Below are positions 2,052 through 30,767 of a stretch of 32,000 nucleotides of DNA, piece by piece. The position numbers and the translations under genes are program-made. A model generated the notes under the pieces. The model did no database searches, was not told the origin of the DNA, and saw only the letters and a program-made list of their open reading frames with translations. How positions within the stretch are numbered: position 1 is the first letter of the stretch; every line of letters starts with the position of its first letter. The stretch comes from Candidatus Methanophagaceae archaeon (GTDB lineage: Archaea > Halobacteriota > Syntropharchaeia > Alkanophagales > Methanospirareceae), in assembly GCA_003194425.1 (NCBI GenBank), contig PQXB01000004.1:12089-44088 (forward strand), read 5' to 3'.

Positions 2052-2864
2052 TCACCTAACCTCTCCAACCTCTCCAACCTCTCTAACCTCTCCAACCTCT
2101 CCAACCTCCCCCACCTCTCCAACCTCCCCCACCTCTCCAATCTTCCACTCCGCCTTCCGCAGAATTCCCCTCAGCGTCTGCACCTCCCTCGCAGTAAGCC
2201 CTGCCCTGCCTAGAATTCGCCGGAGCAGAAGCAGGGTCTTCTCCTTCTTGTGCTTCTTGTAGCCGATTTCGTCGAAGAACGACCTTGCGTGAGCGAAGAG
2301 CTGTTCTTTAGCCGCGGTAGTCGCTAATTCTGACGCTCCTGCTGGGGAAACTTCTCCGCCTCTCTCTCTCGCCCAGCTCAGTTCGTAAAGAAGCACCGCA
2401 ACCGCGTGCGAGAGGTTCATCGCAGGGTAGTCAGGACTCGTGGGAATGCAGACAACAAGGTCGCAAAGCCCAAGTTCCTCGTTCCGCAGCCCTGTGTCCT
2501 CCCTGCCAAAGAGGACTGACAGAACGCCTCCGCTACCAAATCCTTCAACCTTCTCTCTCAATTCTCGCAGCGAGAAGAAGGGCGTTCTGAGGTGTTTGTT
2601 CGGAGAGACGCCGTGCTTGGAGGTTGTGCCGACGACGGCAGCCGAGCCCGCAACCGCCTCCTGCACAGTGCCTACGACCTCGCACCCAGTCAGCACGTCG
2701 TGAGCGTGAGAGGCGACAGCCACCGCTTTCTCTCCTGCCCTTGGGTTAGGGGGGGCGGGATTTACCAAAAAAAACTCCGAGAACCCGAAGTTCTTTAGCA
2801 CCCGTGCTACTGCTCCAATGTTCTCCTCAAGCTTCGGCTCAACAAGAACCGTCCTTAACTGCAT
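2052..2864 (-). CDS. trmJ: SPOUT-class tRNA 2'-O-methyltransferase (TrmJ/COG0565-like) with C-terminal (GEV)n repeat tail
   Basis: VLVEPKLEENIGAVARVLKNFGF..LVNP, SVLFGREDTGLRNEEL and AMNLSHAVAVLLYEL parallel E. coli TrmJ blocks ([53 protein letters not shown]). I prefer the ATG at 2864 (MQLRTV...) to the track start at 2960. The 2865-2960 extension overlaps the 3' end of the radical SAM gene. Confidence 0.75.
   Translation of the reverse strand: MQLRTVLVEPKLEENIGAVARVLKNFGFSEFFLVNPAPPNPRAGEKAVAVASHAHDVLTGCEVVGTVQEAVAGSAAVVGTTSKHGVSPNKHLRTPFFSLRELREKVEGFGSGGVLSVLFGREDTGLRNEELGLCDLVVCIPTSPDYPAMNLSHAVAVLLYELSWARERGGEVSPAGASELATTAAKEQLFAHARSFFDEIGYKKHKKEKTLLLLRRILGRAGLTAREVQTLRGILRKAEWKIGEVGEVGEVGEVGEVGEVREVGEVGEVR
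2058..2138. repeat. 9-bp tandem repeat x9 (AACCTCTCC on + strand; GGAGAGGTT on coding strand), encodes (GEV)n tail of TrmJ-like protein
   Basis: Read directly: aacctctcc aacctctcc aacctctct aacctctcc aacctctcc aacctcccc cacctctcc aacctcccc cacctctcc. Confidence 0.95.
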
Positions 2865-2868
2865 AAAC

Positions 2869-2894
2869 TTTTTCTTAAAAATTTTTCTTAAAAA
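2869..2894. repeat. 13-bp perfect tandem duplication (TTTTTCTTAAAAA x2) spanning radical SAM stop / trmJ start junction
   Basis: Read directly at 2869-2881 and 2882-2894. Confidence 0.9.
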
Positions 2895-3834
2895 ATTTCC
2901 TCGTCGCCTCTTCAAGCCGGCGGCGGTACTCAGGGTCGTCTCCCTTACCCCGTACCGCACGAAGAATCTCTTCTCTCGTGCTTGATTTTGAGCGAGTGAG
3001 CCACGAGATTCGGTCTTCCTCCTGGTCTTTTATCGTCCGTCGCTTGAAGGTGAGGTCTGGGTAGACGGTTACCCAAGTCTCCTGTGCAGGCGGCGTGGGG
3101 TACTCGCGGTAGCAACTCCTGCTAATAATTGTGTTCGGGTGGTGCTTGGAGGCGAGTTCGTAGGCTCGCTCAATCTCCTCGATCGTCGGTCGCCTCGTGA
3201 CCTCCTCGAACGCGAAGGTCGGTGCAAATGGGTTTATTCGGTATTTTATCTCGTGGCTCACGCCCGACAGGAATTTCGCTATTTTTTCAATTTCGTCAGC
3301 CTCTACAATGCCTGGCATAAAAACCGTCTGAATTAGCAACTCCGTCCCCGCCTCGCTCAACGCCCGGACCGCGTTAAAGACAGGCTTGTTGGACTTCCCA
3401 GTGTACCACTCGTGAATCTCCTCCGAGAACGCTTTAATGTCAATGTGCGCCTCGGTCAAGCCCGCGTCCACCAGCTCGGCAGCAAAATCCCCTCTCTCTT
3501 CTCTCTCGCCTCCGCCGACTTTGTAACCGTTGGACATCAGAACAATCTCCTCAAACCCACGCTCCTTCAGCCCCCTTACGAGTGTCAGCAGAAAATCCCT
3601 GTCGAGCGCGGGTTCGCCGCCCGTAATCATCGCCTTGCTCGGAAGTTCTCCGTAGTGTCTGCGGCACGCCTGCTCTGCCCGCTCTAAAGTCTCCTCTGCA
3701 GTGAGCAGCGTCCCACCACCGTCTCGTGCAGGTCTGAAACAACCCCTGCACTGAAAATCGCAGCCGGTCAGCATAAACCAAACCCGCGGCTCAATCTCCG
3801 AAAGGGTAAAATATTGCACGCCTCTTTTTCCCAT
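2875..3834 (-). CDS. Radical SAM domain protein (specific function unknown)
   Basis: 319-aa ORF with C25-x3-C29-x2-C32 (CDFQCRGC) followed by ITGGEPAL (GGE SAM-binding motif). The C-terminal ~70 aa (ISWLTRSKSSTREEILRAVRGKGDDPEYRRRLEEA) are not recognised. Confidence 0.75.
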   Translation of the reverse strand: MGKRGVQYFTLSEIEPRVWFMLTGCDFQCRGCFRPARDGGGTLLTAEETLERAEQACRRHYGELPSKAMITGGEPALDRDFLLTLVRGLKERGFEEIVLMSNGYKVGGGEREERGDFAAELVDAGLTEAHIDIKAFSEEIHEWYTGKSNKPVFNAVRALSEAGTELLIQTVFMPGIVEADEIEKIAKFLSGVSHEIKYRINPFAPTFAFEEVTRRPTIEEIERAYELASKHHPNTIISRSCYREYPTPPAQETWVTVYPDLTFKRRTIKDQEEDRISWLTRSKSSTREEILRAVRGKGDDPEYRRRLEEATRKFFKKNF

Positions 3835-3868
3835 TTTTTACTACTCCTTATTTCCAAAGTATAAAAAC

Positions 3869-4988: not shown

Positions 4989-4989
4989 T

Positions 4990-6980: not shown

Positions 6981-7897
6981 CTCTTTTTTCGGGAGAGGCA
7001 CGACTGGTTGTTTATTTTTGTCTTGAGTACCCTCCCCGCAATTCTGCTCCCTAACTCGCTCCACGCCTCTCGCAATTCCGCCCCTGCCCCCTTTTGCCCC
7101 GCCTCCGCCTCTTCCCCAACTAAAGCCACAAACGACGGTCCTGTCCCCGACAAGCTCACACCCTTCACGCCGCACTCCAACGCCCTCAAAATCGGCTCTG
7201 GGTCGAAGTTCAACGCCGCGCAGTACAGAAACCCGTTTAGCGTCATCGCCTCCTCGAACCGCTCTTCCAACGCCAGGTCAAACGCGAGGCTCACCCACGG
7301 AGCGACCAGCCTCGACCGTTTCACATTCGTCTCCGCGGTGAACGCCTTCTCCTCGGGAACGAGAAAGAGAACCTCGGAGTCCCGCTCCACCTGTTTTAGC
7401 AACGCCTGGTTTCTGTTGTCTGTTACCACGAACCCGCCGAGCAGGGAAGCACAGGCGTCGTCAAAAGCCCCTGTTACTGAGACACCGACATCCAGGGCAG
7501 CCTCAACGCCAAGCCTCACCGCGTCTAACGCACTCGTCTCCTTCAGTCTGCCCGCTGCGTCCAGAGTAGCGACCACCGCCGCGTTTGCCGCTGCACTGCT
7601 GCTCTTCAGCCCGCTTCCAACTGGGACTTCGCTCCTCGTCTTTACAAAGCCACGCAACGGCAGACCGAACTTCTGCAGCACCAACTCCACGCACCGCTCG
7701 ATCAATTTCGTGTCTCCTACTCGGCTCTCTCCCGCCACCTCCATTTCCGCGGTGACACCTCTAAAATCGTCGCCAATTTCCACCTCCGCCTCCGTCCACA
7801 AGTCAATGCCAAAAGCCGAGCCTTTGTAGGTCGCAACTGCGTTTACTACCGTCCCCGCACCGCTGGCTCTTCCACGCCCTTTCCCTTTCGCACTCAT
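6962..7897 (-). CDS. aroK: Shikimate kinase, archaeal GHMP-kinase type
   Basis: GTVVNAVATYKGSAFGIDLW matches the N-terminal block of MJ1440-type shikimate kinase. GHMP motif PVGSGLKSSSAAANA is present. The start ATG overlaps the upstream gene's stop (ATGA at 7894-7897). Confidence 0.85.
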   Translation of the reverse strand: MSAKGKGRGRASGAGTVVNAVATYKGSAFGIDLWTEAEVEIGDDFRGVTAEMEVAGESRVGDTKLIERCVELVLQKFGLPLRGFVKTRSEVPVGSGLKSSSAAANAAVVATLDAAGRLKETSALDAVRLGVEAALDVGVSVTGAFDDACASLLGGFVVTDNRNQALLKQVERDSEVLFLVPEEKAFTAETNVKRSRLVAPWVSLAFDLALEERFEEAMTLNGFLYCAALNFDPEPILRALECGVKGVSLSGTGPSFVALVGEEAEAGQKGAGAELREAWSELGSRIAGRVLKTKINNQSCLSRKKSQEIIK

Positions 7898-8640
7898 CTT
7901 TTTCTGTAATCTTGAAGTAGTTCTTGGAGTTTTTCGTCCTTGCTTTTTAGTGCTTCCTCACCGTGCACGCTGCGGATGTGGTCGAAGATGCCGACCTTCT
8001 CAGCACCGCAGAAAGGGCAGACGTAAGTCTTCTTACCGCCCTCTGCTCCTGCTCCTGCTGCTCCCTCTCGTACTGCTCCCTCTCGTACTGCTCCCGCTCG
8101 TGCTGCTCCTGCCCGCGGTCGTCCAAACAGCAGCTGCCTGTAGGAAAGAGAGAACCAGAGCAGGACAGGAAGAGCCACCCTGCAAGTGCCTGAGAGAAAA
8201 ATAACAAAAATCTGGTAAAACTCACTCGGTCCTGGCGGAGGGGCGTTCTGCAGAGAAACATACGAAAGTTGCAAAATCACACGAAATAAGAAGAGAACAG
8301 GAACGCCGACGAGGAGCGTCTTTGCCTTCCTTTTCAACTCACTTTTCAACTTACACTTCACCTCGCCCTTTACCTCGCCCTTTACCTCGCCCTTCACCTC
8401 GCCCTTCACCTCGCCCTTCACCTCGCCCGTCGCCAGCACCAAAGCAGCGAACACGGGGATGCAACTCCGAATTCCCTGCGAGAAAAGGTAGTCGGGTGCA
8501 GCAGGAGTAGGCGAACCTGTCATTTTTAGCACCGCCGAAAAATAAACAGACGCAACAGGAATCCAAAGCAGGTAAAGCAGCGTCGCAAACAAGAGGAATT
8601 TGCCGAGAAACAGTCCGTATTCTTTACTTCTACTTTTCAT
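7894..8640 (-). CDS. Membrane protein (about 4 TM) with internal (GEVK)n loop, A/G/R/E repeat and C-terminal C2H2-like zinc knuckle
   Basis: 248 aa. Hydrophobic segments include FLLFATLLYLLWIPVASVYF, CIPVFAALVLA, LLVGVPVLFLFRVIL and ALPVLLWFSL. C-terminal YVCPFCGAEKVGIFDHIRSVHGEE gives C-x2-C-x9-H-x4-H. Overlaps the upstream gene by 11 nt. Confidence 0.6.
   Translation of the reverse strand: MKSRSKEYGLFLGKFLLFATLLYLLWIPVASVYFSAVLKMTGSPTPAAPDYLFSQGIRSCIPVFAALVLATGEVKGEVKGEVKGEVKGEVKGEVKCKLKSELKRKAKTLLVGVPVLFLFRVILQLSYVSLQNAPPPGPSEFYQIFVIFLSGTCRVALPVLLWFSLSYRQLLFGRPRAGAARAGAVREGAVREGAAGAGAEGGKKTYVCPFCGAEKVGIFDHIRSVHGEEALKSKDEKLQELLQDYRKR
8058..8117. repeat. 15-bp tandem repeat x4 (CTGCTCCCTCTCGTA-like), encodes AGAVREGAVREGAAGAG
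   Basis: Units at 8058, 8073, 8088 and 8103; the first two are identical. Confidence 0.9.
8357..8428. repeat. 12-bp tandem repeat x6 (TTYACCTCGCCC), encodes (GEVK)n
   Basis: Units at 8357, 8369, 8381, 8393, 8405 and 8417, read directly. Confidence 0.95.
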
Positions 8641-9196
8641 TTTTCTCCACCACCTTGTCCCGCCAAATCAGGAAGAGAAGCACGACGAAGAAGATGAGGA
8701 AGACTTGCCAGAGGTAAGTGTGAAAGAGGTCGAGCAGCGAGGGGACGAACGCACCGACCAACGCAGTAGAACTTAACCGCACAAGCGTAATTCCGTAGAG
8801 AACGGGAACGCCGAGCAGTCCGACTGCTTTCTGCTTTAGCCCTGTTGGGTAGGCGAGCACGACCGAGCAGTAGACGATTATCGAAAATATCCCTGTGCAT
8901 TCTCCGATTATATTTACTGTAGCGTCGCCGACCCTACCTCCGACCGTCACAAAACTTCCGTTCGCAGCAGCGTTCAACCCGATTATGTTTAGAAGCAACG
9001 CAACCAAAAACGCAGTAACCTCTCTCGGCACTCTTTGGTCGCCTGCGATTTTGAAATAAGCGAAGTTGAGTGCGAAGCAGAGTGCGAGGAAGAGTGCGAC
9101 TGTCTTTAAAACTTCCTTGTGCTCCTCAAGAACCTCTCTCGTCGGTCTTGTCTTCGCTTTTCTCCCCGCTTCTCCTCTCCTCTTCGCCTTTGTCAT
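8630..9196 (-). CDS. Small exosortase/archaeosortase-family membrane protein (tentative)
   Basis: Polytopic. IIGECTGIFSIIVYCSVVLAYP has a Cys in an xCxG context, followed 40 residues later by Arg (ITLVRLSS) and then His (LFHTYLW). As I recall, this order and spacing fit the exosortase/archaeosortase catalytic residues. ATG at 9196 (MTKAKRR) is preferred; the track uses TTG at 9205. Confidence 0.5.
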   Translation of the reverse strand: MTKAKRRGEAGRKAKTRPTREVLEEHKEVLKTVALFLALCFALNFAYFKIAGDQRVPREVTAFLVALLLNIIGLNAAANGSFVTVGGRVGDATVNIIGECTGIFSIIVYCSVVLAYPTGLKQKAVGLLGVPVLYGITLVRLSSTALVGAFVPSLLDLFHTYLWQVFLIFFVVLLFLIWRDKVVEKNEK

Positions 9197-9221
9197 TAGT
9201 CTCAATTTTTGTCATTAGTCT
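9189..9221. repeat. 14-nt direct repeat TTTGTCATTAGTCT x2 (19-bp period) duplicating the start-codon region of the archaeosortase-like gene
   Basis: Copies at 9189-9202 and 9208-9221. Each carries a CAT (ATG on the minus strand), and the two are out of frame with each other. Confidence 0.9.
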
Positions 9222-9251
9222 TAATATTTCGCCAACTTCCTTAATAACTCG

Positions 9252-9410: not shown

Positions 9411-12400
9411 ATGCCAAAAAACACAAACTTCAAGCAGGTAGAAGCGAAGTGGCAGCGGAGGTGGGAGGAGAGCGGGATTTTTGACGCCGAACCCCGCGGC
9501 GGTGCGAAGAAGTTCTTCCTGACCGTCCCTTACCCCTACACCTCCGGACCACTCCACATCGGGCACGGCAGAACGAACACAGTGGGCGACATAATCGCAA
9601 GGTTCAAGCGACTGCAGGGCTACAACGTGCTCTTCCCGATGGCTTTTCATGTTACAGGGACGCCGATTTTGGCGATCGCAGACAGCATTTCAAAAAGCGA
9701 GGGCGAGGTCGTGAAGCTGTACAAAGAATATGTCTCGATTTACGAAGGAGGGGACGCTGCGAGTGCGGCGAGGGTTGAGGAGACGGTTCGCAGTTTCACC
9801 GACGCAGCGAGGGTCGCGGAGTTCTTTGCTGCGCGGATTTCAGAAGACTTCAAGAGAATGGGCTACTCGATCGACTGGCGGCGGAAGTTCAACACCACCG
9901 AGCCGATTTACAACAAGTTCGTCGAGTGGCAGTTCAAGAAACTCTACGATAAGGGAGTAATAAAAAAAGGAAAATATCCAATTACTTTTTCTGCCGCCGA
10001 CAACTCGCCGGTCGGTGAGGACGACATCGAGGAAGGGGACACGAACAAGGTCTCAATCGTCGAGCAGACGACAGTGAAGTTCGAAGTTTCGGACGGCAGT
10101 GGCAGTTACTTGGTTGCGGCAACACTGCGGCCAGAAACGATTTTTGGCGTTACGAACCTCTGGGTGAACCCGACTGCGAAGTATGTTAAAGTCAAAGTTC
10201 GGGTAAGAGCGGGGGAGGAGATTTGGTGGGTCTCGAAAGAAGCAGCGGAGAAGTTGAGCTACCAGCGAGAAGGAGTGGCGGTTTTAGAGGGGGAGACAGA
10301 AGAAGAAGGCGGATTTTTTCTGGGCAAGGTAGTGAAGGTGCCGGTGGCGGGCGGCGGGAGAGAAGTGCCGGTTCTTCCTGCGAGCTTCGTTGACGCGGAC
10401 GTCGGCACTGGCGTGGTCTACTCGGTTCCCGCGCACGCACCTTACGACTACATCGCGTTGGAGGATTTGAAGCGGTCGGGAGTGCTGAAGCGGTCGGGAG
10501 TGCTGAAGCGGTTGGGAGTGCTGGATGCAGAAATCGAGCCGATAAAAATTATTGAGATTGAGGGCTACGAGACAGGACTGCCGGCGAAAGAGATTTGCGA
10601 GCGGCTGGAAATAAAAAGTCAGGCGGACGAGGAGCGGTTGGAGGAAGCCACGCAGACGATTTACAAGGACGAATTTTATCGGGGCGTGCTGAACGAGAAG
10701 TGCGGCGAGTTTGCGGGCGTGAAGATTGCGGAAATAAAGGACGAGGTCAAGGAGTGGCTGAAGCGGGAAAATAAAGGGGATGTGTTTTACGAGACCTCGC
10801 GGAAGGCGGTGACGCGGGGCGGAGGGAAGGTGGTCGTTGCGGTTCTGCAGGACCAGTGGTTCATTGACTACACGCCAAGTTGGTGGAAAGAGCGGGGGCA
10901 CAAACTCGTTGACGGGATGACTTTTTACCCCGCGAAATACAAGGCTTACATGCACGAGATTATTGATTGGCTGACGTTGCGACCGTGTGCGAGGAAGCGG
11001 GGGCTGGGCACGCGGTTTCCGTTTGAGCAGGGATGGGTGATTGAGTCGCTGAGCGATTCTACGATTTATATGGCGTTGTACACCGTGGCACACCTGCTGA
11101 GGGGGTTGCCGGTTGAAAGTTTAACCGAGGATTTTTTTGATTTCGTGTTTCTGGGAATTGGGGACGCAGAGGCGTTGGCGAAGGCTGCGGGCGTTGAAAC
11201 GGGCGTTGAAGCGAGCGTCCTGAAGCGTGTGCAGGAGGAGTTTAAGTACTGGTACCCGAACGACCTGCGGCACACTGCACCGCCGCACCTCTCAAACCAC
11301 CTCGTCTTCTTCTTGATGCACCACGCGGCGATTTTTCCGGAGCGTTGCTGGCCGCGGGCGATTACGCTGAACGAGTTGATGATTCGCGAGGGACGGAAAA
11401 TCTCGAAGAGCAAGGGGAACGTGATTCCGCTGGCGAAGGTCTCGGAACTTTACGGCGTGGATTTGTTCAGGCTCTACTGCGCGATTAACGCGGACTTCGC
11501 GAGCGTGGTAAATTGGCGTGAGCAGGATGTGGACGCTTTGGGGAGGCGGTTTAACGCGGTGGTAGAGCTGTTTGAGGACTCTTTAACTGCGGAGTGTGCG
11601 ACTGTGGAGCGTGCGACTGTGGAGCGTGCGAAAGGGTTGAGAGAGGACGAACTCACGCACGCGGACAGGTGGCTGCTCTCGCGGTTCTACCGAACTTTAA
11701 AGGAAACGGTCGAGCGGTTCGCAGCGTTCCGAATTCGAGACGCGGGCATAAATTTGGTCTTCAATTTGATGAACGACATCAGACACTACGAGCAGCGGGC
11801 GAGCGTTGAGAGGCGGAAGCGGCTCGTGCGGTGCGTGCTGGAGGAGTGGCTGGTGGTTCTCTCGCCGATTGTGCCGCACATTTGCGAGGAGTTTTGGGAG
11901 CGGCTGAGGTTGCAGTTGCAGAGGCAGAGGTCGCACGACTCGTTCGTCTCTTTACAGCGGCTGCCGGAGGTGAAGGAGCGGTTTATTGACGACCGAGTGG
12001 AGCGTGAGGAGGAGTTTTTGGCTGCGTTGGTTGCGGACATAAAAGAGATTTTGAGAGTGGCAAGGATCTCGCCCAAACCTCGCAAAATCTACATTTACAC
12101 CGCGGAGCAGTGGAAGTGGGAAATATTCAAGGCGGTGAAGGACTTGCCAGAGCGGGAAAAGATTAGGAAGGCGGTTCGAGTCAGGGGAAGAAAAGGAGAG
12201 GAAAAAAGCACGGTGGATTTCGTGAAGCAGTTGGTGAAGAGCAAAAGCGGTCTGGAGTATTTTGAGCTTGTGGAGGCGGAGGTTCTGGAGCGTGAAAAGG
12301 AGTATTTAAAGGGGGAATTCGGGTGTGAAATCGGAGTGAACGAGGAGCACGACCCGTTGGGGAAGCGGAGGTTTGCGATTCCGCTGAAGCCTGCGATTTT

Positions 12401-12588: not shown

Positions 12589-13902
<1,314 letters not shown>

Positions 13903-20143: not shown

Positions 20144-20215
20144 GGTTTAGCGGTTTGATGGTTTGGGAGTTTGGTGGTTTGGGAGTTTGGTGGTTTGGCG
20201 GTTTGGTGTTTTGGT
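20144..20215. repeat. 8-bp periodic G/T-rich array x9 (GGTTTGGN), including perfect 16-bp duplication GGTTTGGGAGTTTGGT x2
   Basis: Units start every 8 bp from 20144. The 16-mer copies lie at 20160-20175 and 20176-20191. The array starts 7 nt after the ftsY stop. Confidence 0.95.
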
Positions 20216-20234: not shown

Positions 20235-20261
20235 AGAGGGAAAAGAGGGAAAAGAGGGAAA
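20235..20261. repeat. 9-bp tandem repeat AGAGGGAAA x3 immediately upstream of ATG 20265
   Basis: Units at 20235, 20244 and 20253. Confidence 0.95.
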
Positions 20262-20264
20262 AAA

Positions 20265-21533
20265 ATGAACGCAGAAAAGTATGAAGAATTGGTTTTAAGC
20301 GTGGCTGAGAGGAGCGAGGACGCTAAGGTGTTGCTTGGGCTTGTCTGTCTGCTGGAGGGCGCTTCGTCAGAAGAGGCACTCACAAGGAATTTCACCGCGT
20401 TACGAGGAGAGAAGACAGAGGAGAGAGGAGGAGAGGAGGCAGAGGAGAGGGCGAAGGAGAGGGGAAAAGAGTTATTAAGGTTTCTGAGGAAAAAGAAAAT
20501 TTTAGGACGCGGACCTTTTGACGAGTACATTTCCCTGCCTGGTTATGAGAATGTTTTTTCGAAGACCGTAGCCGGCTTTTTACTTCAGCCCGGGGATTTG
20601 TCTGAATATCTTGAAAATGCACTGAAAACAGTAGACGGGGACGGGGAAAGGAGAGACGAAGAGAAGGAGGAAGAAGAAGAGAAGAAGGAAGAGGAAGAGA
20701 GGGAGGAAGAGGAAGAGAAGAAGGAAGAGGAAGAGAAGAAGGAAAGAAGGGAGAGGAGCAATGCAGTAATAAAAATAATTGAATTGCTCTTAAAAATTGA
20801 TATTCACGGAGTTAGCGGATTCACACAATACGACATTATAAAACCAGATATGTGCGATATGTTTTCGCCTGCTATTTTCCGCTCTGTCGAAGACGAACTA
20901 ATCAGCAAGAAACTGTGCGTGTACGGGAAGAAGCGTAAACGGGAATTTTTGAAATTATGTTCGAGTTCGGCTGAGATAAAGGATGCAAAAGAGAGAATAG
21001 AAGAATGGAGACGGAAAAAATTAACTACAGGTGGCGTGCCAGAAATAGTTGAAAAAAGAGTAAAAGATCTTGTGGCGGGGGTGAAAAAAGGGACGAAGGA
21101 GTGGAAGGCGAAGTTTGCGGAGGTTAGTAAATTTTCTAAAGAGGATTTAGAGAAGGTAGGGGCGTATTTCAGCGGGTTCAAGATGGAGGAGAACTTCCTG
21201 TTTCTCACTGGCGACCTACTTGTAGGAGACGACACGCTTCACTTGGTAATTACAGACCGCCTGTCGAGGTACGATGTCAGAGAATGGAGAAGGCAGCCAG
21301 TGCTTTTTATAACAGAAGTGAGACCGAGATGGCTTCAAAAAATTGAGGTCGTGTTTAGGGGAGCGTATCCAAAGTTATCCGAGCGAAGAGTAGCCGTCGC
21401 GGTTCCGAACGAGGTTGCATACTCAAATTTCAAGCAGGACCTTCTTTACGACATCGTAGAGCGGTTGGGGATTCCTGAGGTTTTAGGCTTAAAATCAATT
21501 CCTACACAACCCGTGGATCACACATTCTACTAA
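20265..21533 (+). CDS. Hypothetical protein (ORFan, 422 aa) with central E/K low-complexity linker
   Basis: Long ORF. ATG at 20265 is preferred because the track's 20163 start translates the G/T repeat array. No family recognised. The C-terminal half is visibly A+T-rich. Confidence 0.6.
   Translation: MNAEKYEELVLSVAERSEDAKVLLGLVCLLEGASSEEALTRNFTALRGEKTEERGGEEAEERAKERGKELLRFLRKKKILGRGPFDEYISLPGYENVFSKTVAGFLLQPGDLSEYLENALKTVDGDGERRDEEKEEEEEKKEEEEREEEEEKKEEEEKKERRERSNAVIKIIELLLKIDIHGVSGFTQYDIIKPDMCDMFSPAIFRSVEDELISKKLCVYGKKRKREFLKLCSSSAEIKDAKERIEEWRRKKLTTGGVPEIVEKRVKDLVAGVKKGTKEWKAKFAEVSKFSKEDLEKVGAYFSGFKMEENFLFLTGDLLVGDDTLHLVITDRLSRYDVREWRRQPVLFITEVRPRWLQKIEVVFRGAYPKLSERRVAVAVPNEVAYSNFKQDLLYDIVERLGIPEVLGLKSIPTQPVDHTFY
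20655..20755. repeat. GAA/GAG-rich repeats (18-bp unit GGAAGAGGAAGAGAAGAA x2 at 20706/20724) encoding the E/K linker
   Basis: Read directly. Confidence 0.85.
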
Positions 21534-23657: not shown

Positions 23658-23702
23658 GCTTGCAAGTTTTGTTGCAAGTTTTTTTCTTTTTTTCTTTTTT
23701 TC
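23658..23702. repeat. 13-bp tandem duplication around palindrome CTTGCAAG, followed by (T7C)x2 T7 tract, in ask-lonB spacer
   Basis: gcttgcaagtttt gttgcaagtttt tttctttttttcttttttt. CTTGCAAG at 23659-23666 is self-complementary. Confidence 0.85.
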
Positions 23703-25136
23703 TCAACGCCCCATTTCAAAGACATCGTGAATCGCTTGTGCTGCGTTCTGTGCGTCCTCGCGTCGCACGACGAAAGAGATGTTGAACTCGGAGCTGCCCT
23801 GCGAGATCATTTTCACGCTGATCCCCTCCTTGCCGAGAGCTGAGAAGACTTTGCCTGCGACGCCGGGCGTTCCAGCCATTCCTACGCCGACGACGCCGAT
23901 TGCAGAGACGCTGCTGTTTGAAGTGAAGTCTCGGACAACGGTGCCTCCTCCACCGCCGCCTGCGTCTGCGTTTGCGTTTAATTTCTGAATCGCGGAAACG
24001 GCTCGTTGCAGTTGTGCGGTGTTAACGACGATGGAAATGGTTCGTTCAGAGGAGCCGTGAGAGATCATAAAAATCTCCACTTGTTCGGAGGCTAAAGCAG
24101 AGAAGACGCGTGCCACGACCTCTGAAATGCTCCGCACGCCGGTTCCAGCGACATTCAAGATTGAGGTGTTCTCGATAATTGTGATGGCTTTGGCAGCCTT
24201 CTTTGTCTGCTCCGGCTCCTCGCCGATGAGCGTGCCCTCGTCGTCGGGTTTGAACGGGTTCTTCACGAGAATCGGAATTCTCTTCGCCACCACCGGCTCA
24301 ATCGCCCGGGAATGCAGGACAGAAGCCCCGAAGTAAGAGAGTTCCATCGCCTCGGCGTAGGAGATGTAGGGGATTCTTCGTGCGTTCCGAATTATCTTGG
24401 GGTCGGCGCTCATTATTCCCTCGGTCTCCTTCCAGAGCCAGACCTCGTCGGCGTCTACTGCCGCTCCGATTAGGGTTGCGGTGTAGTCCGAGCCGCCCCT
24501 GCCAAAAGTTGTTACCTGCCCCTTCCTCGTTTTCCCGGTGTAGCCGCAGACGACTGGGATTTTACCGCTGTCCAAGAGCGGAATAATTTTTTCTCTAACC
24601 GTCTCCTCCGCACCACGCAGCAGCAGTGCGTTGCCGTAGTCTTCGTTCGTTGTTAAGCCTGCCTCGCCACCGGTGAGGTGCACTGCGTCCTGACCCAACG
24701 ATCGCAGCGTGCCAGCCAAGATTGGGGCTGCCAGCCGTTCGCCAAACGAGACGATGTAGTCAAGCGACCGTGCCGAGAGCTCGCCGAGCAGGGAGATTCC
24801 AGTCAACGCCCTCTCCAGTTCGCCCAGCCTTTCTTCTACTTCTCTCGTTACCACACGCAGCACACGCTTGTCTTTTATCGCTTCTGACGCCGCGGTCAGG
24901 TGCTTCGTTTTTAAATCCTGCACGAAAGATTTCGCCTTCTCCACCTCGCCCTCGCTCGCAATTCGGGCTGCGTTCTCGTGCAGTGCGTCAGTGACCCCGA
25001 AGAACGCCGAGGTCACCACGACCAGTTCTTTTCTTTTCTTTTCTTTTTCTCTGCACCGCCGTACTAACTCTGCCACTGCCTTTATTTTCCCGCCGTCCGC
25101 GACCGCACTCCCTCCGAACTTCATCACCAGTCTCAT
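23703..25136 (-). CDS. Aspartate kinase
   Basis: 477 aa. MKFGGSAVADG, VVVTSAFFGVTD, FGRGGSDYTA and two C-terminal ACT-like repeats. Confidence 0.9.
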   Translation of the reverse strand: MRLVMKFGGSAVADGGKIKAVAELVRRCREKEKKRKELVVVTSAFFGVTDALHENAARIASEGEVEKAKSFVQDLKTKHLTAASEAIKDKRVLRVVTREVEERLGELERALTGISLLGELSARSLDYIVSFGERLAAPILAGTLRSLGQDAVHLTGGEAGLTTNEDYGNALLLRGAEETVREKIIPLLDSGKIPVVCGYTGKTRKGQVTTFGRGGSDYTATLIGAAVDADEVWLWKETEGIMSADPKIIRNARRIPYISYAEAMELSYFGASVLHSRAIEPVVAKRIPILVKNPFKPDDEGTLIGEEPEQTKKAAKAITIIENTSILNVAGTGVRSISEVVARVFSALASEQVEIFMISHGSSERTISIVVNTAQLQRAVSAIQKLNANADAGGGGGGTVVRDFTSNSSVSAIGVVGVGMAGTPGVAGKVFSALGKEGISVKMISQGSSEFNISFVVRREDAQNAAQAIHDVFEMGR

Positions 25137-25248: not shown

Positions 25249-26997
25249 ATGGCAGGCCAGTTGGGAGGAATTCCGGTTTTAGTGCTACGAGAAGGGAGCG
25301 AGCGGGCAAGCGGGAGAGAGGCACAGAGCAAGAACATCGAGGCGGCGAAGGCGGTTGCTTCCGCGGTTTGCAGCACGCTGGGACCGAAGGGAATGGACAA
25401 GATGCTTGTGGGTTCGTTCGGCGATGTGGTCGTAACGAACGACGGCGTGACGATTCTTAAAGAAATGGAAATTGAGAGCCCGGCGGCGAAGATGATGGTC
25501 GAGGTTGCGAAGACCGTTGACGAAGTGGTGGGCGACGGCACCACAACAGCGGTCGTACTCGGCGGGGAACTGCTGAAAAAGGCAGAGGAGTTGCTGGAGC
25601 AGGGCTTGCACCCCTCGGTTGTCACGCTGGGCTACAGGCTTGCGGCGGAGAACGCGAAGTCGGTGCTGGAGGCGGTTGCTACTGAAGTGCTCGGGGTGGA
25701 CGGGGGTAGGACAGAAGGGGGAGAAAAAGGTGAGGGAGAAGAGGAGAACGAGGAGGTGCTGAAGAAAATAGCGAAAACCGCGGTAACAGGGAAGTTCGCA
25801 GAAGCGTCTCGTGACTTCCTTGCGGAAATCGCAGTAAAAGCGGTTAAGGCAGTGGCGGAAAGAACCGAGACTGCTCGCAGCGGGCGTGGCGGGAAGAGGG
25901 TGGTTGACACTGAGAATGTCAGCGTGGAGAAGAAGGTTGGCGGGAAAATCGCCGAGACCGAGTTGGTGCAAGGACTGGTACTTGACAAGGAGGTGGTGAA
26001 TCCGAGAATGCCGAGGCGAGTGGCGGGTGCGAAAATCGCTTTGGTCAACGCCTCGCTTGAGGTGAAGAAGACCGAGACGAGTGCCGAGTTGAAAATAACA
26101 AGTTCTGACCAACTAACCGCGTTCCTTGAAGAGGAGGAGCAGGCGATGAAAAGAATGGCGGAGTGCGTGAAAGAGAGCGGTGCGAATGTCGTAATTTGTC
26201 AGAAGGGGATTGACGAAGTCGTGCAGCACTACCTCGCGAAGTTCGGGATTTTGGCGGTCCGCAGGGCGAAGAAGAGCGACTTGGCGAGGTTGGAGAAAGC
26301 GACGGGCGGCAAAATCGTGACCACGGTGGAAGAGCTGAGTGCGAGCGACTTGGGGAACGCGGGCTTGGTAGAGGAGCGGAAAATCGCGGGCGACAAAATG
26401 CTCTTCGTGGAGGAGTGCGAGAACCCGCACGCGGTCTCGGTCTTTCTGCGAGGCGGGTCCGAACAGGTGCTGGACGAGGTTGAGCGCGGTTTGCACGACA
26501 TGCTGCGGGTCGTTGGCTGCATAATTGAGGACGGCAAAGTGGTTGCTGGCGGCGGTGCTGTCGAGACCGAGTTGGCACTGCGGGTGCGGGAGTTCAGTGC
26601 CTCGCTGAAGGGAAAAGAGCAGTTGGCGGCGGAGAAGTTCGCAGAGGCTCTGGAAATTATTCCACGCACGCTGGCTGAGAACTCTGGGTTCGACCCGATC
26701 GACAAACTTGTGGCTTTGAAGGCTGCGCACGAGCGGGGCGAGCGGGGCGAGAAGAAAGCGGGCTTGGACGCCTACACCGGCGAAATTCTGGATATGTGGG
26801 AAGCAGGCGTCTTGGAGCCGCTGAGGACGAAGAAGCAGGCGTTGGAGTCCGCGGTAGACGCGGCGACGATGATTCTCAGAATTGACGATGTGATCGCGTC
26901 GAAGCGGGAGTCACTACCGCCAGCTGGTGGTGGAGGAGCACCAGGAGGAGCACCAGGAGGAGCACCAGGAGGAGGCGGTGGAATGCCGCCTTACTAA
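25249..26997 (+). CDS. ths: Thermosome subunit (group II chaperonin)
   Basis: 582 aa. [39 protein letters not shown] and AGGGAVE. C-terminal G/A/P tail ends in GGGMPPY. Confidence 0.95.
26935..26970. repeat. 12-bp tandem repeat GGAGCACCAGGA x3 encoding (GAPG)3 in thermosome tail
   Basis: Read directly. Confidence 0.9.
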
Positions 26998-27028: not shown

Positions 27029-28246
27029 TTAAATATAAGATGAAACCACCACAGCCTCCAAATCCTCAAGAAACTCCTTCACCGTCTCTTCTTTTACGTG
27101 CGGCATTACAACCAGCCGAAGCGCCTTTGGGGCTCTTGTCACCGAGACGCGCCAGCCCCGCTCTACCAACGCACTCGCCACCCGTTCCACTTCAGCAGGC
27201 GTCGGAAAACGGAGCGCCGCCACATTTATCACAGGCTCAACCACCGTAGAAACGCCCAACTCCGCCGCACCCCGCACCAAGAGCCTCGTTAGCCGAACGC
27301 ACTCTCTTACGACCCTGCGGAGACCTTCTCTGCCGAGGTATTTTAGGACTGCGAAGGTCGCGGCTGCCGACGCACCGCTTCTCGTTCCAGTCAGCGAGGA
27401 CTGCGATTTCGTCGTTAAGTAGGGCGTAGGCACCGCCAACTCCTCCAAATACGACTCCTCGCGGAACAAGAGGCAGCCCGCAGGAATCGTGCTCAAGCCC
27501 ATTTTGTGCGGGTCGACCGAGACTGCACCCACACCCTCAACCGAGAAGTCAAACTCATACTTTCGCCTCTCCCCCTCCCCCTCCAAGAACGGAAGCACGA
27601 ACCCCCCGAAAGCAGCGTCGACAAACAAGAAAATCTCCCGCCCCTTCTCCTGTTTCTGCTCCTGCACAAGTTTTGCAAGGTCTTTTATCGGGTCTACCTG
27701 CCCGAACTCGGTCGTTCCCGCGATTCCAACAACGCAGATTGTCTCGTCGTCAATCAATTCTGCGACCGAACTCACCGCGACCCGCAACTCCTCGTCCAGC
27801 CCCGCTTTCCGAACTTCAACGCACAAAAGGTCCGCGATCTTGTCAAACGAAAAATGCGCCGTCTCAGGCACGATTATGTTCATTCCTTTCAGACGCTGCC
27901 CCTCCCGCCTTTTCCTGTTCCTTACTGCGTGAATTACCTGAATATTTGATTCTGTCCCGCCGGTTGAGAGGTAGCCGAACGCGTTCCCGCTGTCCTGCCC
28001 TCGCCCCTGCCCTCGTCCGAGCAGCGATCCAATCATTCGCACCACCTCTTTTTCCATCTCCTTCGTCCCCGGAAACAGTCCAGAATCGCCTAAATTCGAT
28101 TCCAAGAACATTTTATGAGCGTACGCTGCTACCTCGTGCGGGTAAGTGCACATCGAACTCAAGACGCGTTTGTAAGACAAATCCTTCCGCTTCTGCTCCC
28201 GAAGCAGCGACTCTACTTCCCTCCTGCTCAACCCTCGCTCGTCCAT
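27029..28246 (-). CDS. mfnA: L-tyrosine/L-aspartate decarboxylase (methanofuran / CoA biosynthesis), PLP-dependent
   Basis: 405 aa. SSMCTYPHEVA..FLESNLGDSGLFPGTKEME, GGTESN and VSVDPHKMG (PLP lysine) match the MJ0050-type MfnA pattern. Confidence 0.85.
   Translation of the reverse strand: MDERGLSRREVESLLREQKRKDLSYKRVLSSMCTYPHEVAAYAHKMFLESNLGDSGLFPGTKEMEKEVVRMIGSLLGRGQGRGQDSGNAFGYLSTGGTESNIQVIHAVRNRKRREGQRLKGMNIIVPETAHFSFDKIADLLCVEVRKAGLDEELRVAVSSVAELIDDETICVVGIAGTTEFGQVDPIKDLAKLVQEQKQEKGREIFLFVDAAFGGFVLPFLEGEGERRKYEFDFSVEGVGAVSVDPHKMGLSTIPAGCLLFREESYLEELAVPTPYLTTKSQSSLTGTRSGASAAATFAVLKYLGREGLRRVVRECVRLTRLLVRGAAELGVSTVVEPVINVAALRFPTPAEVERVASALVERGWRVSVTRAPKALRLVVMPHVKEETVKEFLEDLEAVVVSSYI
27995..28018. 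repeat. 12-bp tandem repeat x2 encoding GRGQGRGQ in MfnA
   Basis: ctgccctcgccc ctgccctcgtcc. Confidence 0.9.
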
Positions 28247-28302
28247 TTTTATCCAAAATTTATAACCCGCTCCTACTTAATATTATGCGAAAAAAGAAGA
28301 GT

Positions 28303-28338
28303 AAGGAACAGAGGAAGAAGAAGGAACAGAGGAAGAAG
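28303..28338. repeat. Perfect 18-bp tandem duplication AAGGAACAGAGGAAGAAG x2 in the cfbD leader or N-terminal extension
   Basis: Copies at 28303-28320 and 28321-28338. Confidence 0.95.
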
Positions 28339-28350
28339 GAGAAGACAAAG

Positions 28351-29547
28351 ATGAAGATGGCGATGGAAATGATACTGCATCCGAGGCCGAGTGCGATTGT
28401 GGCGGCACTTTACACGCTCCGCGATCTTGACGCGGGGGTTGCGGTTCTGCACGGACCTGCGGGGTGCAGTTTTAAGCACAGCCGACTGCTTGAGGAGGAC
28501 GGAATGCACGTCCTGACGACTGCGATGAACGAGAGTAATTTTGTCTTCGGCGGGCACGACTCGCTCGTTGAGGTCTTGAGAAAGGCGGAAGAGATGTTTC
28601 ACCCGGAATTGATTGGAGTGGTCGGCACCTGCGCTAGTATGATAATTGGTGAAGACCTGCAGCAAGCGGTGGAGGAGAGCGGTGTTGACAGCGGAAGCGG
28701 AGTTGCGGGGACAGGAACAGCGGGCAAGAGGTGTAAAGTGGTAGCGGTGAACGTGCACGCAGGCTACAGGGACAACACAGTGGGCGTTATTTTGACTTTG
28801 GAGGCTGCTTACAAGGCGGGCGTAATTAGTGGCTCGGAGTTTGAGCGGCAGAAAAAGATGCTTGAGGCAGCGACGCGGCTGGAGAAAGAGGTCGGTGCAG
28901 CCTGCAGAAGCTACATTCCGCCGTCTAAAGGCGATTCTAAAATCGCGGTCGCGAGCAGGCTACTTGAACTCGTCGGCGCGGGGAAACGGGGTGTCTGCGT
29001 CTTAAACGCCAAGAAAGAGACCGCTTTTATGTTTGCAGACATTTTGCGGGCGGTGAACAAAGTGGCAGCGTCTACACCTTCGCGGATCGTAAATATCGCA
29101 AACCTCGACAAGAATGTGGGCTTGAAACGAATTCGGGGCTACGCAGCGAGGATTCTGGACGAGTTAGCCGCAGACGGCGTCAAAATCGAGCACACAATCG
29201 GGGGACTGGACGAGTACGTGGTCGCGGGCGAGAGGGCGGCAGCTTTGATTCACGACTCTTACAGGGACTACGACTTCGCAGTCCTGCTTGGCATTCCGCA
29301 CGCAGTGCCTTTGAGTGGGGGAGGAGTAAAAGGTGAAGAAAAGAAAATTGAGATATTTTCGGTGACAAACGGACCGCGAACGATCGACCCGCTGCGGTGG
29401 CTCGGGCACGACCACGCAGTGCTTGAGATTGACCTTCACCCGAAGACGATGGGAGCGACGGGCATTATTCCGTCGGAGTTCGGCGACGCGTTGTTGCGGC
29501 TGGGGCAGTTACAGGGGCTGGAGCAGTTACAGGGGCAGTTGCAGTAG
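28351..29547 (+). CDS. cfbD: Nitrogenase NifD/NifE-like oxidoreductase, probable Ni-sirohydrochlorin a,c-diamide reductive cyclase subunit CfbD (NflD)
   Basis: [27 protein letters not shown] and [17 protein letters not shown] are nitrogenase component-1 family blocks. The methanogen-type context (mfnA adjacent) favours CfbD. Start is ambiguous: ATG at 28351, 28357, 28363 or 28369, or ATG at 28285 giving a K/E/Q-rich extension. The track's 27673 start is rejected. Confidence 0.65.
29503..29544. repeat. 18-bp tandem repeat x2.3 (GRGCAGTTACAGGGGCWG) encoding [15 protein letters not shown]-terminus of CfbD-like protein
   Basis: Units at 29503 and 29521, partial at 29539. Confidence 0.9.
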
Positions 29548-29586
29548 GTAGTAGCTGTAGGTAGTGGCTGTAGGTAGTGGTTGAGG
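29548..29586. repeat. 13-bp tandem repeat x3 (GTAGTRGYTGWRG) filling the cfbD-tyrS spacer
   Basis: gtagtagctgtag gtagtggctgtag gtagtggttgagg, starting at the nucleotide after the TAG stop. Confidence 0.95.
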
Positions 29587-29603
29587 AAGGGAGAGGAGAA
29601 AAA

Positions 29604-30767
29604 ATGGACATAGAAACGAAGATTGCGCTTGTAAAGAGGCACCCGACCGCGGAGGTAGTGACCGAGGAGGACTTAAGAAATTTGTTTGAGAACGAGGAGC
29701 ACCCGGTTGCCTACGACGGCTTTGAACCCTCGGGGCTTGCTCATTTGGGGTCAGGGCTTTTAAGAGCGATTAAATTGGACGACCTGATTAAAGCGGGCGT
29801 CAGGTTTAAATTCCTCGTTGCAGACCAATTTGCACTCTTGAACGACAAAATGGGCGGCGACTTGCAGGCGATTCGGGAGGTTGGGAAGTACCTCGTCTCG
29901 GTCTGGGAAGCCTGCGGTGTTGATTTGAGCAAGGTAGAAGTTGTGTGGTCTTCGGAGGTGTTTAAAGACCCGGATTACTGGGAGACGGTCTTGAAGGTCG
30001 TTAGAAATGTCACTGTAAATCGACTGACGAGGGCGGTAACGGTGCTGGGGCGGCGTGAAGGTGAGGTAGCGACCGCGTCCCGACTGTTCTACCCTGCGAT
30101 GCAGTGCGCGGACATTTTTTACCTGAACGTTGACATTTGCCAGTTAGGCTACGACCAGCGGAAAGCGAACATTCTGGCACGCGACATCGGCGAGAAGATT
30201 GGATTCTGGAAGCCCGTCTGCGTGCATCACGAACTCTTAATTGGACTGCAGGGACCCACAAAAATGGGCGGTCTCCCCTTCAACAAGCCCGACAAGCCCG
30301 ACAAGTCGGACAGGTCTGACCTGTCTAACCTGTCTGAGAGGGCGGAGAGGGAAGAGAGGGAAGAGAGGGAAGAGGAGCGGCAGTCGCAGGTTAAAATGTC
30401 AAAGAGTTTTCCCGACACCTGCGTGTTTGTTCACGACGCACCAGAGGAGGTGGAGCGAAAAATTAAGAACGCCTTCTGCCCGCCAAAGCAGACAACAGAA
30501 AACCCGATTTTAGAGATTTTAAAGTTTATTATTTTTAGAAAATCCAGGAAATTCGAGTTAGAGCGACCGCGGAAATTTGGGGGGACTGAAACCTATTTTT
30601 CTTTTGACGAGTTAGAAGCAGCGTACAGGAAGGGGGAAATTCATCCGTTAGATCTGAAACTAAATGTTTCTACTGCTTTGAACGAGATTTTAGAGCCTGT
30701 GAGGGCGTATTTTGAGAGGAGACCCGAGCTTTTAGAGGTCTTTAAAAAACAGGAGGTCACGCGGTGA
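29604..30767 (+). CDS. tyrS: Tyrosyl-tRNA synthetase (archaeal type) with ~40-aa repeat insertion before KMSKS
   Basis: Aligns by eye along its whole length with M. jannaschii TyrRS: GFEPSG.AHLG, LVADQFALLN, YPAMQCADIFYL, QRKANILAR, KMSKS, FGG...ELE, HPLDLK, LEPVR. ATG at 29604 (MDIETK) is preferred, with GGAGAGGAG upstream. Confidence 0.9.
   Translation: MDIETKIALVKRHPTAEVVTEEDLRNLFENEEHPVAYDGFEPSGLAHLGSGLLRAIKLDDLIKAGVRFKFLVADQFALLNDKMGGDLQAIREVGKYLVSVWEACGVDLSKVEVVWSSEVFKDPDYWETVLKVVRNVTVNRLTRAVTVLGRREGEVATASRLFYPAMQCADIFYLNVDICQLGYDQRKANILARDIGEKIGFWKPVCVHHELLIGLQGPTKMGGLPFNKPDKPDKSDRSDLSNLSERAEREEREEREEERQSQVKMSKSFPDTCVFVHDAPEEVERKIKNAFCPPKQTTENPILEILKFIIFRKSRKFELERPRKFGGTETYFSFDELEAAYRKGEIHPLDLKLNVSTALNEILEPVRAYFERRPELLEVFKKQEVTR
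30285..30374. repeat. Ten consecutive in-frame 9-bp units (AAGCCCGAC drifting to AGGGAAGAG), encoding KPD KPD KSD RSD LSN LSE RAE REE REE REE
   Basis: Units indexed at 30285, 30294, 30303, 30312, 30321, 30330, 30339, 30348, 30357 and 30366. Confidence 0.95.

Follow-up and report, generated by a model that had tools for sequence, protein, structure and literature searches.

The 32-kb stretch of archaeal DNA analysed here (termed 'the window') is compact, with a G+C content of 54% and with 94.6% of its length coding for about 26 genes, and its outstanding feature is a dense set of short tandem repeat arrays, many of them lying in-frame within conserved housekeeping genes and differing in copy number between near-identical strains. 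The genes encode a CbbQ/NorQ ATPase with its vWA partner, a TrmJ-like SpoU methylase, a radical SAM protein, a DUF166 protein, IlvE, an EamA transporter, a GHMP kinase, two membrane proteins, leucyl-tRNA synthetase (LeuRS), EndoQ, adenine deaminase, a DUF1786 protein, NadA, prefoldin, FtsY, an ORFan, LonB, aspartate kinase, thermosome, MfnA, a CfbD-like protein, tyrosyl-tRNA synthetase (TyrRS) and the start of adenylosuccinate lyase. Judged from sequence comparison, the lineage appears to lie in or beside ANME-1 (Methanophagales): the nearest LeuRS sequences are those of ANME-1 metagenome-assembled genomes (about 70-77% identity), and in a neighbour-joining tree of LeuRS the branch of the window falls outside the sampled ANME-1 cluster. 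The same population is represented by many metagenome contigs and by a 202-kb contig of GCA_026133975.1, an assembly in which contig JAOQIL010000003.1 matches the window. It is distinct from the ANME-1c culture MAG grown at 70 C, which has 47.8% G+C.

Arrays were counted with Tandem Repeats Finder (TRF) after merging, at a score of at least 50 and a period of 4-60. TRF returned 72 rows for the window at a score of at least 30, and 27 merged arrays at the counting threshold, which together cover 1,428 bp (4.46% of the window) at a density of 0.84 per kb. When codons were shuffled within genes (the intergenic DNA being left unshuffled) 3.5 +/- 0.7 arrays were found, when they were shuffled in 30-codon blocks 5.4 +/- 1.2, and after dinucleotide shuffling in 300-nt blocks 0.43. 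The units, which range from 6 to 54 bp, are contiguous and show 75-100% matches between copies (TRF); 19 arrays are wholly intragenic, and about eight others are non-coding in whole or in part. An array with a score of at least 50 is present in 13 genes, and about 15-16 of the 26 are affected once weaker arrays are added (GRGQGRGQ in MfnA, a 6-bp x3.2 array beside the glycine run of aspartate kinase, and one at the 3' end of the radical SAM gene). This agrees with a first-pass annotation of the sequence, which had claimed in-frame tandem repeats in at least 14 of about 27 proteins, although the glycine run of aspartate kinase, which it had counted as an array, is not itself detected by TRF.

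Several arrays read by eye in that annotation were likewise found by TRF: (GEV)9 in TrmJ, (GEVK)6 and a 15-bp array (x4.5) in a four-transmembrane (4-TM) protein, the 18-bp (x3.1) and 15-bp (x3.1) arrays of LeuRS, to which a third (12 bp x2.6) can be added, the perfect (ACGACC)6.2 of EndoQ, the perfect thermosome array (12 bp x3.6) and the 18 bp x2 arrays at both ends of the CfbD-like protein. Two others need correction: the '9 bp x10' of TyrRS consists of three adjacent and different arrays of 9-bp units (2.6 + 2.7 + 4.3 copies), and the '12 bp x7' of the DUF1786 protein consists of two related arrays of 12-bp units (2.7 + 4.5 copies). The protein previously labelled 'EndoQ-like' is a true EndoQ (E = 2e-110 to 5zb8).

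The density of arrays had been thought atypical of archaea, and comparison with relatives shows this to be so. Among 79 LeuRS loci of species-representative genomes, densities are mostly 0-0.15 arrays per kb, and the mean over 684 kb of related metagenome loci retrieved with NadA is 0.066 per kb, which places the window at about 13 times the density of related archaeal loci; FWG147, the relative with the closest TyrRS (39-41% G+C), is almost array-free, with one array in about 24 kb. The flanks of the same population beyond the window (about 17-20 kb of distinct sequence) carry 0.46-0.92 arrays per kb, a density like that of the window, and the property therefore reaches beyond this region. 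In a survey of 687 archaeal genomes, archaea had the lowest short tandem repeat density of the domains and did not, on average, exceed simulated genomes in this respect (PMC12699852). Because the definitions differ, the count of perfect short repeats made here cannot be set against the mean of 1.02 bp per kb published for archaea, and the internal controls described above were used instead.

Strain contigs were recovered by exact match to the repeat-free neighbouring proteins NadA, CbbQ, LonB and MfnA; an exact look-up of the thermosome and prefoldin proteins returned no match, because their arrays or sequences vary between strains. This gave 22 contigs from independent assemblies, at a substitution divergence of 0.35-0.8% from the window, except that two Logan contigs are identical to it and a third lies at 0.1%. 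Over these contigs 43 sites vary in length (29 coding and 14 non-coding), 25 of which fall in arrays of the window. Most of the remaining sites that were inspected are plain tandem duplications, or losses of a single copy, of adjacent sequence (for example, +24 at 18918, +18 at 27990, +24 at 12801, +30 at 7049, +14 at 9225, +10 at 18431 and -20 at 25170). Within the arrays, the (GEV)n repeat in the C-terminal tail of TrmJ (9 bp x9.2; 2058-2140, minus strand) has six length alleles (0 to -54 bp) in ten contigs, and the two arrays of the 4-TM protein, both on the minus strand, have six and four alleles in seven contigs: the 15 bp x4.5 array at 8043-8109, encoding GA[AV]R[EA], with alleles from -30 to +24, and the (GEVK)6 array at 8356-8428 (12 bp x6.1), with alleles of -12, -24, -36 and -60. 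Such whole-unit differences in copy number, with several alleles per locus, are those of variable number tandem repeats (VNTRs), or minisatellites, and the earlier suggestion that the arrays are recent is supported, with near-identical strains differing by the gain and loss of whole units.

The length differences obey a strict rule in coding DNA. All 50 of the distinct non-reference alleles at the 29 coding sites are multiples of 3, as against only 2 of the 19 alleles at the 14 non-coding sites (in 1,731 bp); since the frame is kept in every coding allele, the arrays are translated. The periods of the arrays divide in the same way, being 6, 9, 12, 15, 18, 30 or 54 bp for those wholly in genes and 8, 13, 16, 17 or 19 bp for non-coding arrays. 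Per kb, arrays and indel (insertion or deletion) sites are roughly 7-8 times more frequent in non-coding than in coding DNA, with about 8 indel sites per kb in the former and about 1 per kb in the latter. Outside the arrays the host genes are under purifying selection: the ratio of nonsynonymous to synonymous polymorphism (pN/pS) is 0.17, and the density of single nucleotide polymorphisms (SNPs) in non-coding DNA (0.024) is close to pS (0.028). Non-coding DNA holds 14 indel sites against 29 SNPs outside arrays, a ratio that is high for prokaryotes. The greater density of arrays and indels in non-coding DNA, where units are not confined to triplets, therefore identifies a general mutational process as the input and selection as the filter.

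The position of the arrays within their host proteins was assessed against orthologues. In a synteny comparison with 160 fetched loci, LeuRS, NadA and a few other genes were the only ones with homologues in loci besides L081, and gene order is therefore not conserved; orthologues were compared instead by alignments to PDB structures and by one homologue search. The LeuRS of the window is longer (1,001 aa) than its 15 ANME-1 orthologues (about 940 aa) and carries 14 inserts specific to the lineage. The largest are the LKRSGV array (18 bp x3.1; 10468-10523, plus strand; alleles -18 and -36), lacking in the 15 orthologues, and the TVERA array (15 bp x3.1; 11586-11631, plus strand; alleles -15 and +3), lacking in the orthologues and in the LeuRS of P. 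horikoshii; both are gaps against the P. horikoshii structure 1wz2. The additional 12 bp x2.6 array of LeuRS lies between them (11188-11218, plus strand; allele +12). In TyrRS, the three adjacent 9-bp arrays (PDK / SDLSNL / EREEREE; 30283-30374, plus strand; allele -18) make up a 27-aa insert (KPDKSDRSD...EREEREEREE) in the loop preceding the KMSKS motif, which is lacking in the 85%-identical Methanophagales orthologue from FWG147, in 2cyc and in all other aligned homologues. An AlphaFold2 model of TyrRS has a core pLDDT of about 90, with residues 219-242 and 254-268 below 50, and by this model the insert is predicted to be disordered or non-globular.

Comparable gaps are found elsewhere. The thermosome has inserts of 13 and 7 aa relative to 1q3r, together with a (GGAP)n C-terminal tail (12 bp x3.6, perfect; 26932-26974, plus strand; allele -12 in 7 of 10 contigs), and the Thr12 tract of EndoQ, encoded by the (ACGACC)6.2 array (13698-13734, plus strand; allele +6), falls inside a 14-aa insertion relative to the P. 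furiosus enzyme (5zb8). Two related 12-bp arrays (GEGR / EAGR; 16380-16458, minus strand; allele +12) split the Pfam domain of the DUF1786 protein in two, and the E/K/V-rich arrays of FtsY (12, 18 and 30 bp; 19055-19154, plus strand; alleles -6, +6 and +18) occupy an N-terminal extension upstream of the SRP54_N domain. Arrays in terminal tails are thus carried by TrmJ, thermosome, EndoQ (a C-terminal E/K-rich array at 13839-13876, plus strand; allele -3), FtsY (at its N terminus) and both ends of the CfbD-like protein, which has an N-terminal K/E/Q array (18 bp x2; 28294-28357, plus strand; alleles +15, +18 and +36) and a C-terminal one (LGQLQG, 18 bp x2.2; 29498-29536, plus strand; allele -6). 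The arrays are insertions, and they appear to lie at termini or flexible loops: at termini in the several cases above, in a low-pLDDT loop in TyrRS, and, at the other internal sites, as judged from alignment gaps.

A second repeat-rich lineage is found within Methanophagales. ANME-1-LC (locus L035, JACGMN01; 45% G+C), with 0.69 arrays per kb, is the only one of about 160 comparison loci to show a pattern like that of the window: the units of its coding arrays are 6, 9 and 12 bp long (encoding KSKSKS, DQDQDQ, GAGAGAG and DRDKDRD), and those of its non-coding arrays are 7, 14, 15 and 18 bp long. In the LeuRS tree it is not sister to the window, and its own closest LeuRS relatives (L026 and L018) are repeat-poor. 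The repeat-rich state has thus arisen at least twice within ANME-1, with neighbouring lineages repeat-poor. The ANME-1-LC LeuRS (1,026 aa) has 13 inserts of its own, which are unrelated in sequence to those of the window, and yet 8 of the 11 window inserts of at least 2 aa lie within 6 positions of an ANME-1-LC insert, where 1.8 would be expected (p = 5e-5). Shared sites filled by unrelated repeats would be expected if duplications arose at random and protein structure decided which were kept, and the recurrence supports the existence of permissive loops. Among the non-coding arrays of ANME-1-LC are long perfect or near-perfect 7-bp arrays (L035 1341-1458 and 12670-12701), with about 11-12 copies each of TACCCTT and TTAGCCC and 4.6 copies of ATCCATG. 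Three AT-rich loci with moderately high TRF density (L137, L143 and L139) were considered as instances of the same phenomenon and set aside; their arrays are mostly long-period and non-coding.

The coding arrays have a marked composition. The coding strand of the window is purine-rich (A+G 0.56-0.65) on either genomic strand, and array codons are 81% purine versus 58% in other coding sequence; the earlier observation that purine richness tracks the coding strand and not the genomic strand holds for genes on both strands. Among array residues E, G, K and R are enriched 1.7-2.5-fold (Glu 2.5-fold), D is depleted 16-fold, and I, P, L and the aromatic residues are depleted as well. The bias extends to synonymous positions: third-position purines amount to 0.84 in arrays versus 0.58 elsewhere, with Gly encoded by GGR in 84% versus 49% of cases, Arg by AGR in 73% versus 46% and Ala by GCR in 97% versus 75%. 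Taking one unit per array, the third-position purine content exceeds the background of the host gene in 15 of 19 arrays (Wilcoxon p = 5e-4), and the total purine content is above background in 17 of the 19 (p = 3e-4); the coding strands contain 12 homopurine runs of at least 20 nt, versus 1.6 +/- 1.2 after codon shuffling. Exceptions are the LeuRS TVERA array, the EndoQ poly-Thr array and an array in a membrane protein (12 bp x3.3, ALFLALCFALNF; 9060-9099, minus strand), which is hydrophobic and pyrimidine-rich; the non-coding arrays and those of ANME-1-LC (rich in D, Q, A, G, S and K) are not homopurine. The first-pass annotation had proposed selection for hydrophilic G/E/K/R/V loops as the driver. 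That proposal is not supported in this form, in view of the greater density of arrays in non-coding DNA, the purine excess at synonymous sites and the 16-fold depletion of Asp; given the synonymous bias and the contrast between Glu and Asp, selection for hydrophilic loops is insufficient by itself.

A likely explanation for these observations is a high flux, peculiar to this lineage, of short tandem duplications and slippage products, of which selection retains those that keep the reading frame and fall at permissive sites. Short tandem duplications (3-30 bp) would arise at high flux everywhere in the DNA, and slipped-strand gain and loss of the resulting units would follow, with slippage or flap-type misalignment suggested by what the events look like. 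Within genes, an event would be retained only if it kept the frame and fell at a terminus, a linker or a flexible surface loop; in non-coding DNA units of any length would remain, at a density several times higher. The purine-loaded sense strand, as a locally two-letter sequence of low complexity, may offer more chance microhomology and so seed misalignment, E/G/K/R peptides may be those best tolerated as disordered inserts, and a lineage-specific change in replication or repair fidelity could be the root cause. Most arrays would then be neutral or slightly deleterious passengers, equivalent to VNTRs, and not adaptations. Several points weigh against this explanation. A higher mutational input is not formally separated from a higher tolerance or fixation of its products; indel and SNP counts were drawn from consensus assemblies, in which alignment inside arrays is ambiguous; the sample covers roughly 50 kb of the genome, and the root cause has the standing of a hypothesis; and the synonymous purine excess and the Glu/Asp contrast show that a factor at the level of nucleic acid shapes the arrays, for which seeding by purine tracts would be one possible form.

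Four other explanations bear on the same evidence. An artefact of assembly or sequencing might be suspected, in that the data are metagenomic short-read assemblies and tandem repeats are open to mis-assembly (PMC6868369). The arrays, however, are at most about 110 bp long, every coding length difference preserves the reading frame, and the same arrays turn up in more than 20 assemblies made independently from a range of samples and by various pipelines; two Logan assemblies, each from its own read set, agree with the window along 3.4-3.9 kb containing eight arrays, at 100% and 99.9% identity and without gaps, by which an artefact is excluded for practical purposes. Relaxed purifying selection, or a small effective population size, could by itself allow ordinary slippage to accumulate, as might be imagined for ANME-type archaea, which grow very slowly, and the inserts do look like passengers. 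Yet selection is evidently effective, with a pN/pS of 0.17 outside arrays and a perfect frame filter in the 50 alleles, the 14 indel sites against 29 SNPs outside arrays occur in non-coding DNA, which is weakly selected in any case, and related ANME-1 lineages lack arrays, all of which makes this explanation improbable.

Selection could alternatively have favoured E/G/K/R-rich flexible inserts for solubility, thermostability or interactions in a hot, high-pressure habitat. Such an adaptive origin would suit the enrichment of arrays in charged residues and Gly, the recurrence of LeuRS inserts at the same sites in two lineages, the purine bias that tracks the coding strand, and the finding that prokaryotes growing at higher temperatures have a greater purine load and more charged residues (PMC1769408). 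It fits poorly with arrays and indels that are denser in non-coding DNA, with copy numbers that are multi-allelic in near-identical strains, with repeats that are unrelated in sequence at the shared LeuRS sites, with a bias that reaches synonymous positions and almost excludes Asp, with the existence of hydrophobic and poly-Thr arrays, and with the lack of the insert in the relative that has the closest TyrRS, and it is considered quite unlikely. Also unlikely, in turn, is that transcription-linked instability of homopurine DNA (through R-loops, or triplex/H-DNA, on a purine-rich non-template strand) is the main generator of arrays in genes. The 12 homopurine runs versus 1.6 +/- 1.2 in shuffled sequence, the third-position purine content (0.84 versus 0.58, per-array p = 5e-4) and the adherence of the bias to the sense strand on both genomic strands speak in its favour, but the non-coding arrays, which form the densest class, are not homopurine, those of ANME-1-LC are not either, and several coding arrays are not purine-rich. 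As a contributor, transcription through R-loops or H-DNA may nonetheless play some part. The explanation by duplication flux and selective filtering can be carried one step further, in that the window lineage and, independently, ANME-1-LC may be natural tandem-duplication mutators, in which a factor that guards the fidelity of replication or repair has been lost or altered and 3-30 bp tandem duplications have become more frequent throughout the genome; this is a tentative proposal, with the odds against it, for which hypothetical candidates would be flap endonuclease, the proofreading domain of PolD or PolB, PCNA, NucS/EndoMS and MutS/L. Were it true, core enzymes would keep acquiring fresh disordered segments.

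The phenomenon is a known type of genome dynamics and not a new system. Bacterial genomes usually carry tens of VNTR loci, often intergenic or in surface proteins. The loci used in multiple-locus VNTR analysis (MLVA) resemble the present arrays in their head-to-tail units of 6-18 bp, whole-unit differences between strains, multiple alleles and coding units in multiples of 3; the present arrays differ in their density (about 0.8 per kb), in their spread over about half of the genes of the window (including aminoacyl-tRNA synthetases, chaperonin and FtsY) and in their archaeal host. A second parallel is with Plasmodium falciparum, whose AT-richness gives Asn and Lys. Its inserts, like those described here, are lineage-specific, stand between conserved blocks and have a composition that mirrors nucleotide bias (here, purine load leading to E/G/K/R), and they are non-globular, as the present ones appear to be; they differ in belonging to an AT-rich eukaryote and in consisting predominantly of homopolymers and triplets, in contrast to the mostly 6-18 bp units, the 54% G+C and the at least two origins in one archaeal order found here. 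In housekeeping proteins of P. falciparum, low-complexity inserts occupy loops and surfaces, and their length polymorphism has been ascribed to replication slippage (PMC3140889). Ehrlichia ruminantium, according to PMC10710844 (citing Collins et al. 2005), has an unusually high load of actively variable tandem repeats; as described there, expansion and contraction target non-coding DNA and lengthen intergenic regions, unlike the present window, which is 94.6% coding and in which many arrays are translated in core enzymes.

Yeast without flap endonuclease (FEN1/rad27) accumulates duplications of about 5-100 bp flanked by short repeats, and the duplication events among the present strains share their form, with any link between the two being a hypothesis. 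Tandem duplications and deletions are also a recognised class in the spontaneous mutation spectra of Sulfolobus acidocaldarius (PMC7785828). These yeast and Sulfolobus data are from laboratory spectra or mutants, unlike the natural population described here. The proportion of A+G in coding DNA and the growth temperature are correlated (PMC1769408), and the purine loading of thermophiles has the same coding-strand A+G excess on either genomic strand; it is, however, a diffuse property of the genome, whereas here the excess is concentrated in arrays (0.81 versus 0.58) and appears to shape which duplications arise or survive. A 2026 paper on variable hotspots in ANME-1 drops variants of 50 bp or less, and is hence silent on short arrays. 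No description of such a repeat state in ANME-1 or other archaea was found in the literature searched, which is an absence from that literature and not proof of novelty.

Other repetitive systems were considered and rejected. CRISPR arrays have direct repeats of about 24-48 bp with unique spacers, and the present units are contiguous, without spacers, and mostly intragenic. A diversity-generating retroelement is not indicated, in that the variation is one of copy number and not of targeted substitution; no reverse-transcriptase family was found among the 20 window proteins scanned. Contingency (phase-variable) loci would switch by frameshift, and all 50 coding alleles are multiples of 3; they are also ill-matched by the hosts (LeuRS, TyrRS, thermosome, FtsY, EndoQ, adenine deaminase, MfnA and TrmJ), which are not surface, host-interaction or restriction-modification genes.

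The lineage breaks the low-repeat rule for archaea, with essential enzymes that carry length-variable, translated minisatellites. The existence of repeat-rich and repeat-poor ANME-1 relatives amounts to a natural experiment, in which a comparison of gene content could reveal what controls the fidelity of slippage and tandem duplication in archaea, and the arrays themselves show how quickly disordered segments enter conserved proteins and which sites tolerate them. On the practical side, they offer markers, ready for use, by which strains of an uncultured relative of the methane-oxidising ANME-1 can be told apart; they also make proteins look more divergent than they are, and may break up or mislead metagenomic assembly and the clustering of orthologues.

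The remaining coding arrays are as follows. The vWA (NorD-like) gene, which runs off the start of the window on the minus strand, contains a 9 bp x7.4 array (835-901; alleles -18, +9 and +18) and a 111-bp unit present twice at 75% identity (206-424); it is the partner of the CbbQ/NorQ ATPase (1215-2045), and its product has a called length of 1143 to 1154 aa among strains. Adenine deaminase (minus strand) has a weak GGE / VK array in its C-terminal domain (14143-14168), where the match exceeds the span of the Pfam profile by 11 residues, and a 15 bp x2.2 array encoding GGRKR (14503-14535; allele +15). The DUF1786 protein has, in addition to its 12-bp arrays, a Gly-Ser array (18 bp x3.4; 16071-16132, minus strand; allele -18). 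In MfnA, the GRGQGRGQ repeat (27569-27584, minus strand; allele -6) is read by TRF as 6 bp x2.7 and at the protein level as a 12-bp unit present twice, and the tandem duplication of +18 at about 27990, found in 7 of 10 contigs, is separate from it. Two E/K/R-rich arrays (20404-20449 and 20648-20756, plus strand; alleles +6, -21, -3 and +30) lie in the ORFan (20265-21533, plus strand), which has no Pfam match, is conserved in every strain contig (called at 415-464 aa), and has a repeat region that is both highly acidic and basic.

Arrays in or across non-coding DNA begin with a 19 bp x2.2 array (9189-9229) that spans the annotated 5' end of a membrane-protein gene and adjoining intergenic DNA, with nearby indels of -40 and +14 (the latter a tandem duplication). 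An intergenic 13 bp x2.6 array lies in the interval between prefoldin and FtsY (18952-18987), and a T-rich 8 bp x3.1 array at 23679-23703 has alleles of -8, -7 and +1. A 13 bp x2.8 array (29544-29580) runs over the CfbD stop codon into the intergenic DNA before TyrRS. Upstream of the ORFan are a G+T-rich array of 16 bp x3.9 (or 8 bp x9; 20144-20215; allele -16) and, just before the ATG at 20265, a perfect 9 bp x3.1 array (AGAGGGAAA; 20235-20262), where indels of +4 and +5 show that it is not translated. The TTG start listed for the ORFan at 20163 is probably wrong, because these strain indels (at 20253-20259) show the upstream stretch to be untranslated.

The prefoldin region is variable in other respects. 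A 24-bp tandem duplication over the prefoldin stop codon (18918) occurs in 4 of 6 strain contigs; it should leave the protein unchanged, through the stop in the first copy, and prefoldin is called at 155 aa in most contigs with the duplication. The interval between NadA and prefoldin (18100-18384) is a rearrangement breakpoint inside a population that is more than 99% identical: gene order there varies among strains, with the NadA-prefoldin junction of the window backed by L181, with AcnX, a wyosine radical SAM gene, CoaE and ThiC adjoining prefoldin instead of NadA in L172-L176, and with L081 departing from the window sequence after 18125. A presence/absence polymorphism is found between the 4-TM gene and the GHMP kinase, where L164, L165, L169 and L170 have a gene for a DNA methyltransferase (N6_N4_Mtase) of 410 aa (397 aa in L165) that is absent from the window (~7888-7910), L162 and L163.

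Base composition differs greatly between relatives, with 54% G+C and a strongly purine-loaded coding strand in the window lineage and 39-41% G+C in FWG147 (L002 and L184-L187), a shift that would fit adaptation to higher temperature. Finally, the long Ser/Pro/Arg-rich open reading frames at 151-534 (plus), 27673-28284 (plus) and 30641-31705 (minus) are antisense or out-of-frame shadows of purine-rich genes and not genes; the real gene after TyrRS is that of adenylosuccinate lyase, on the plus strand from about 30764 to the end of the window.

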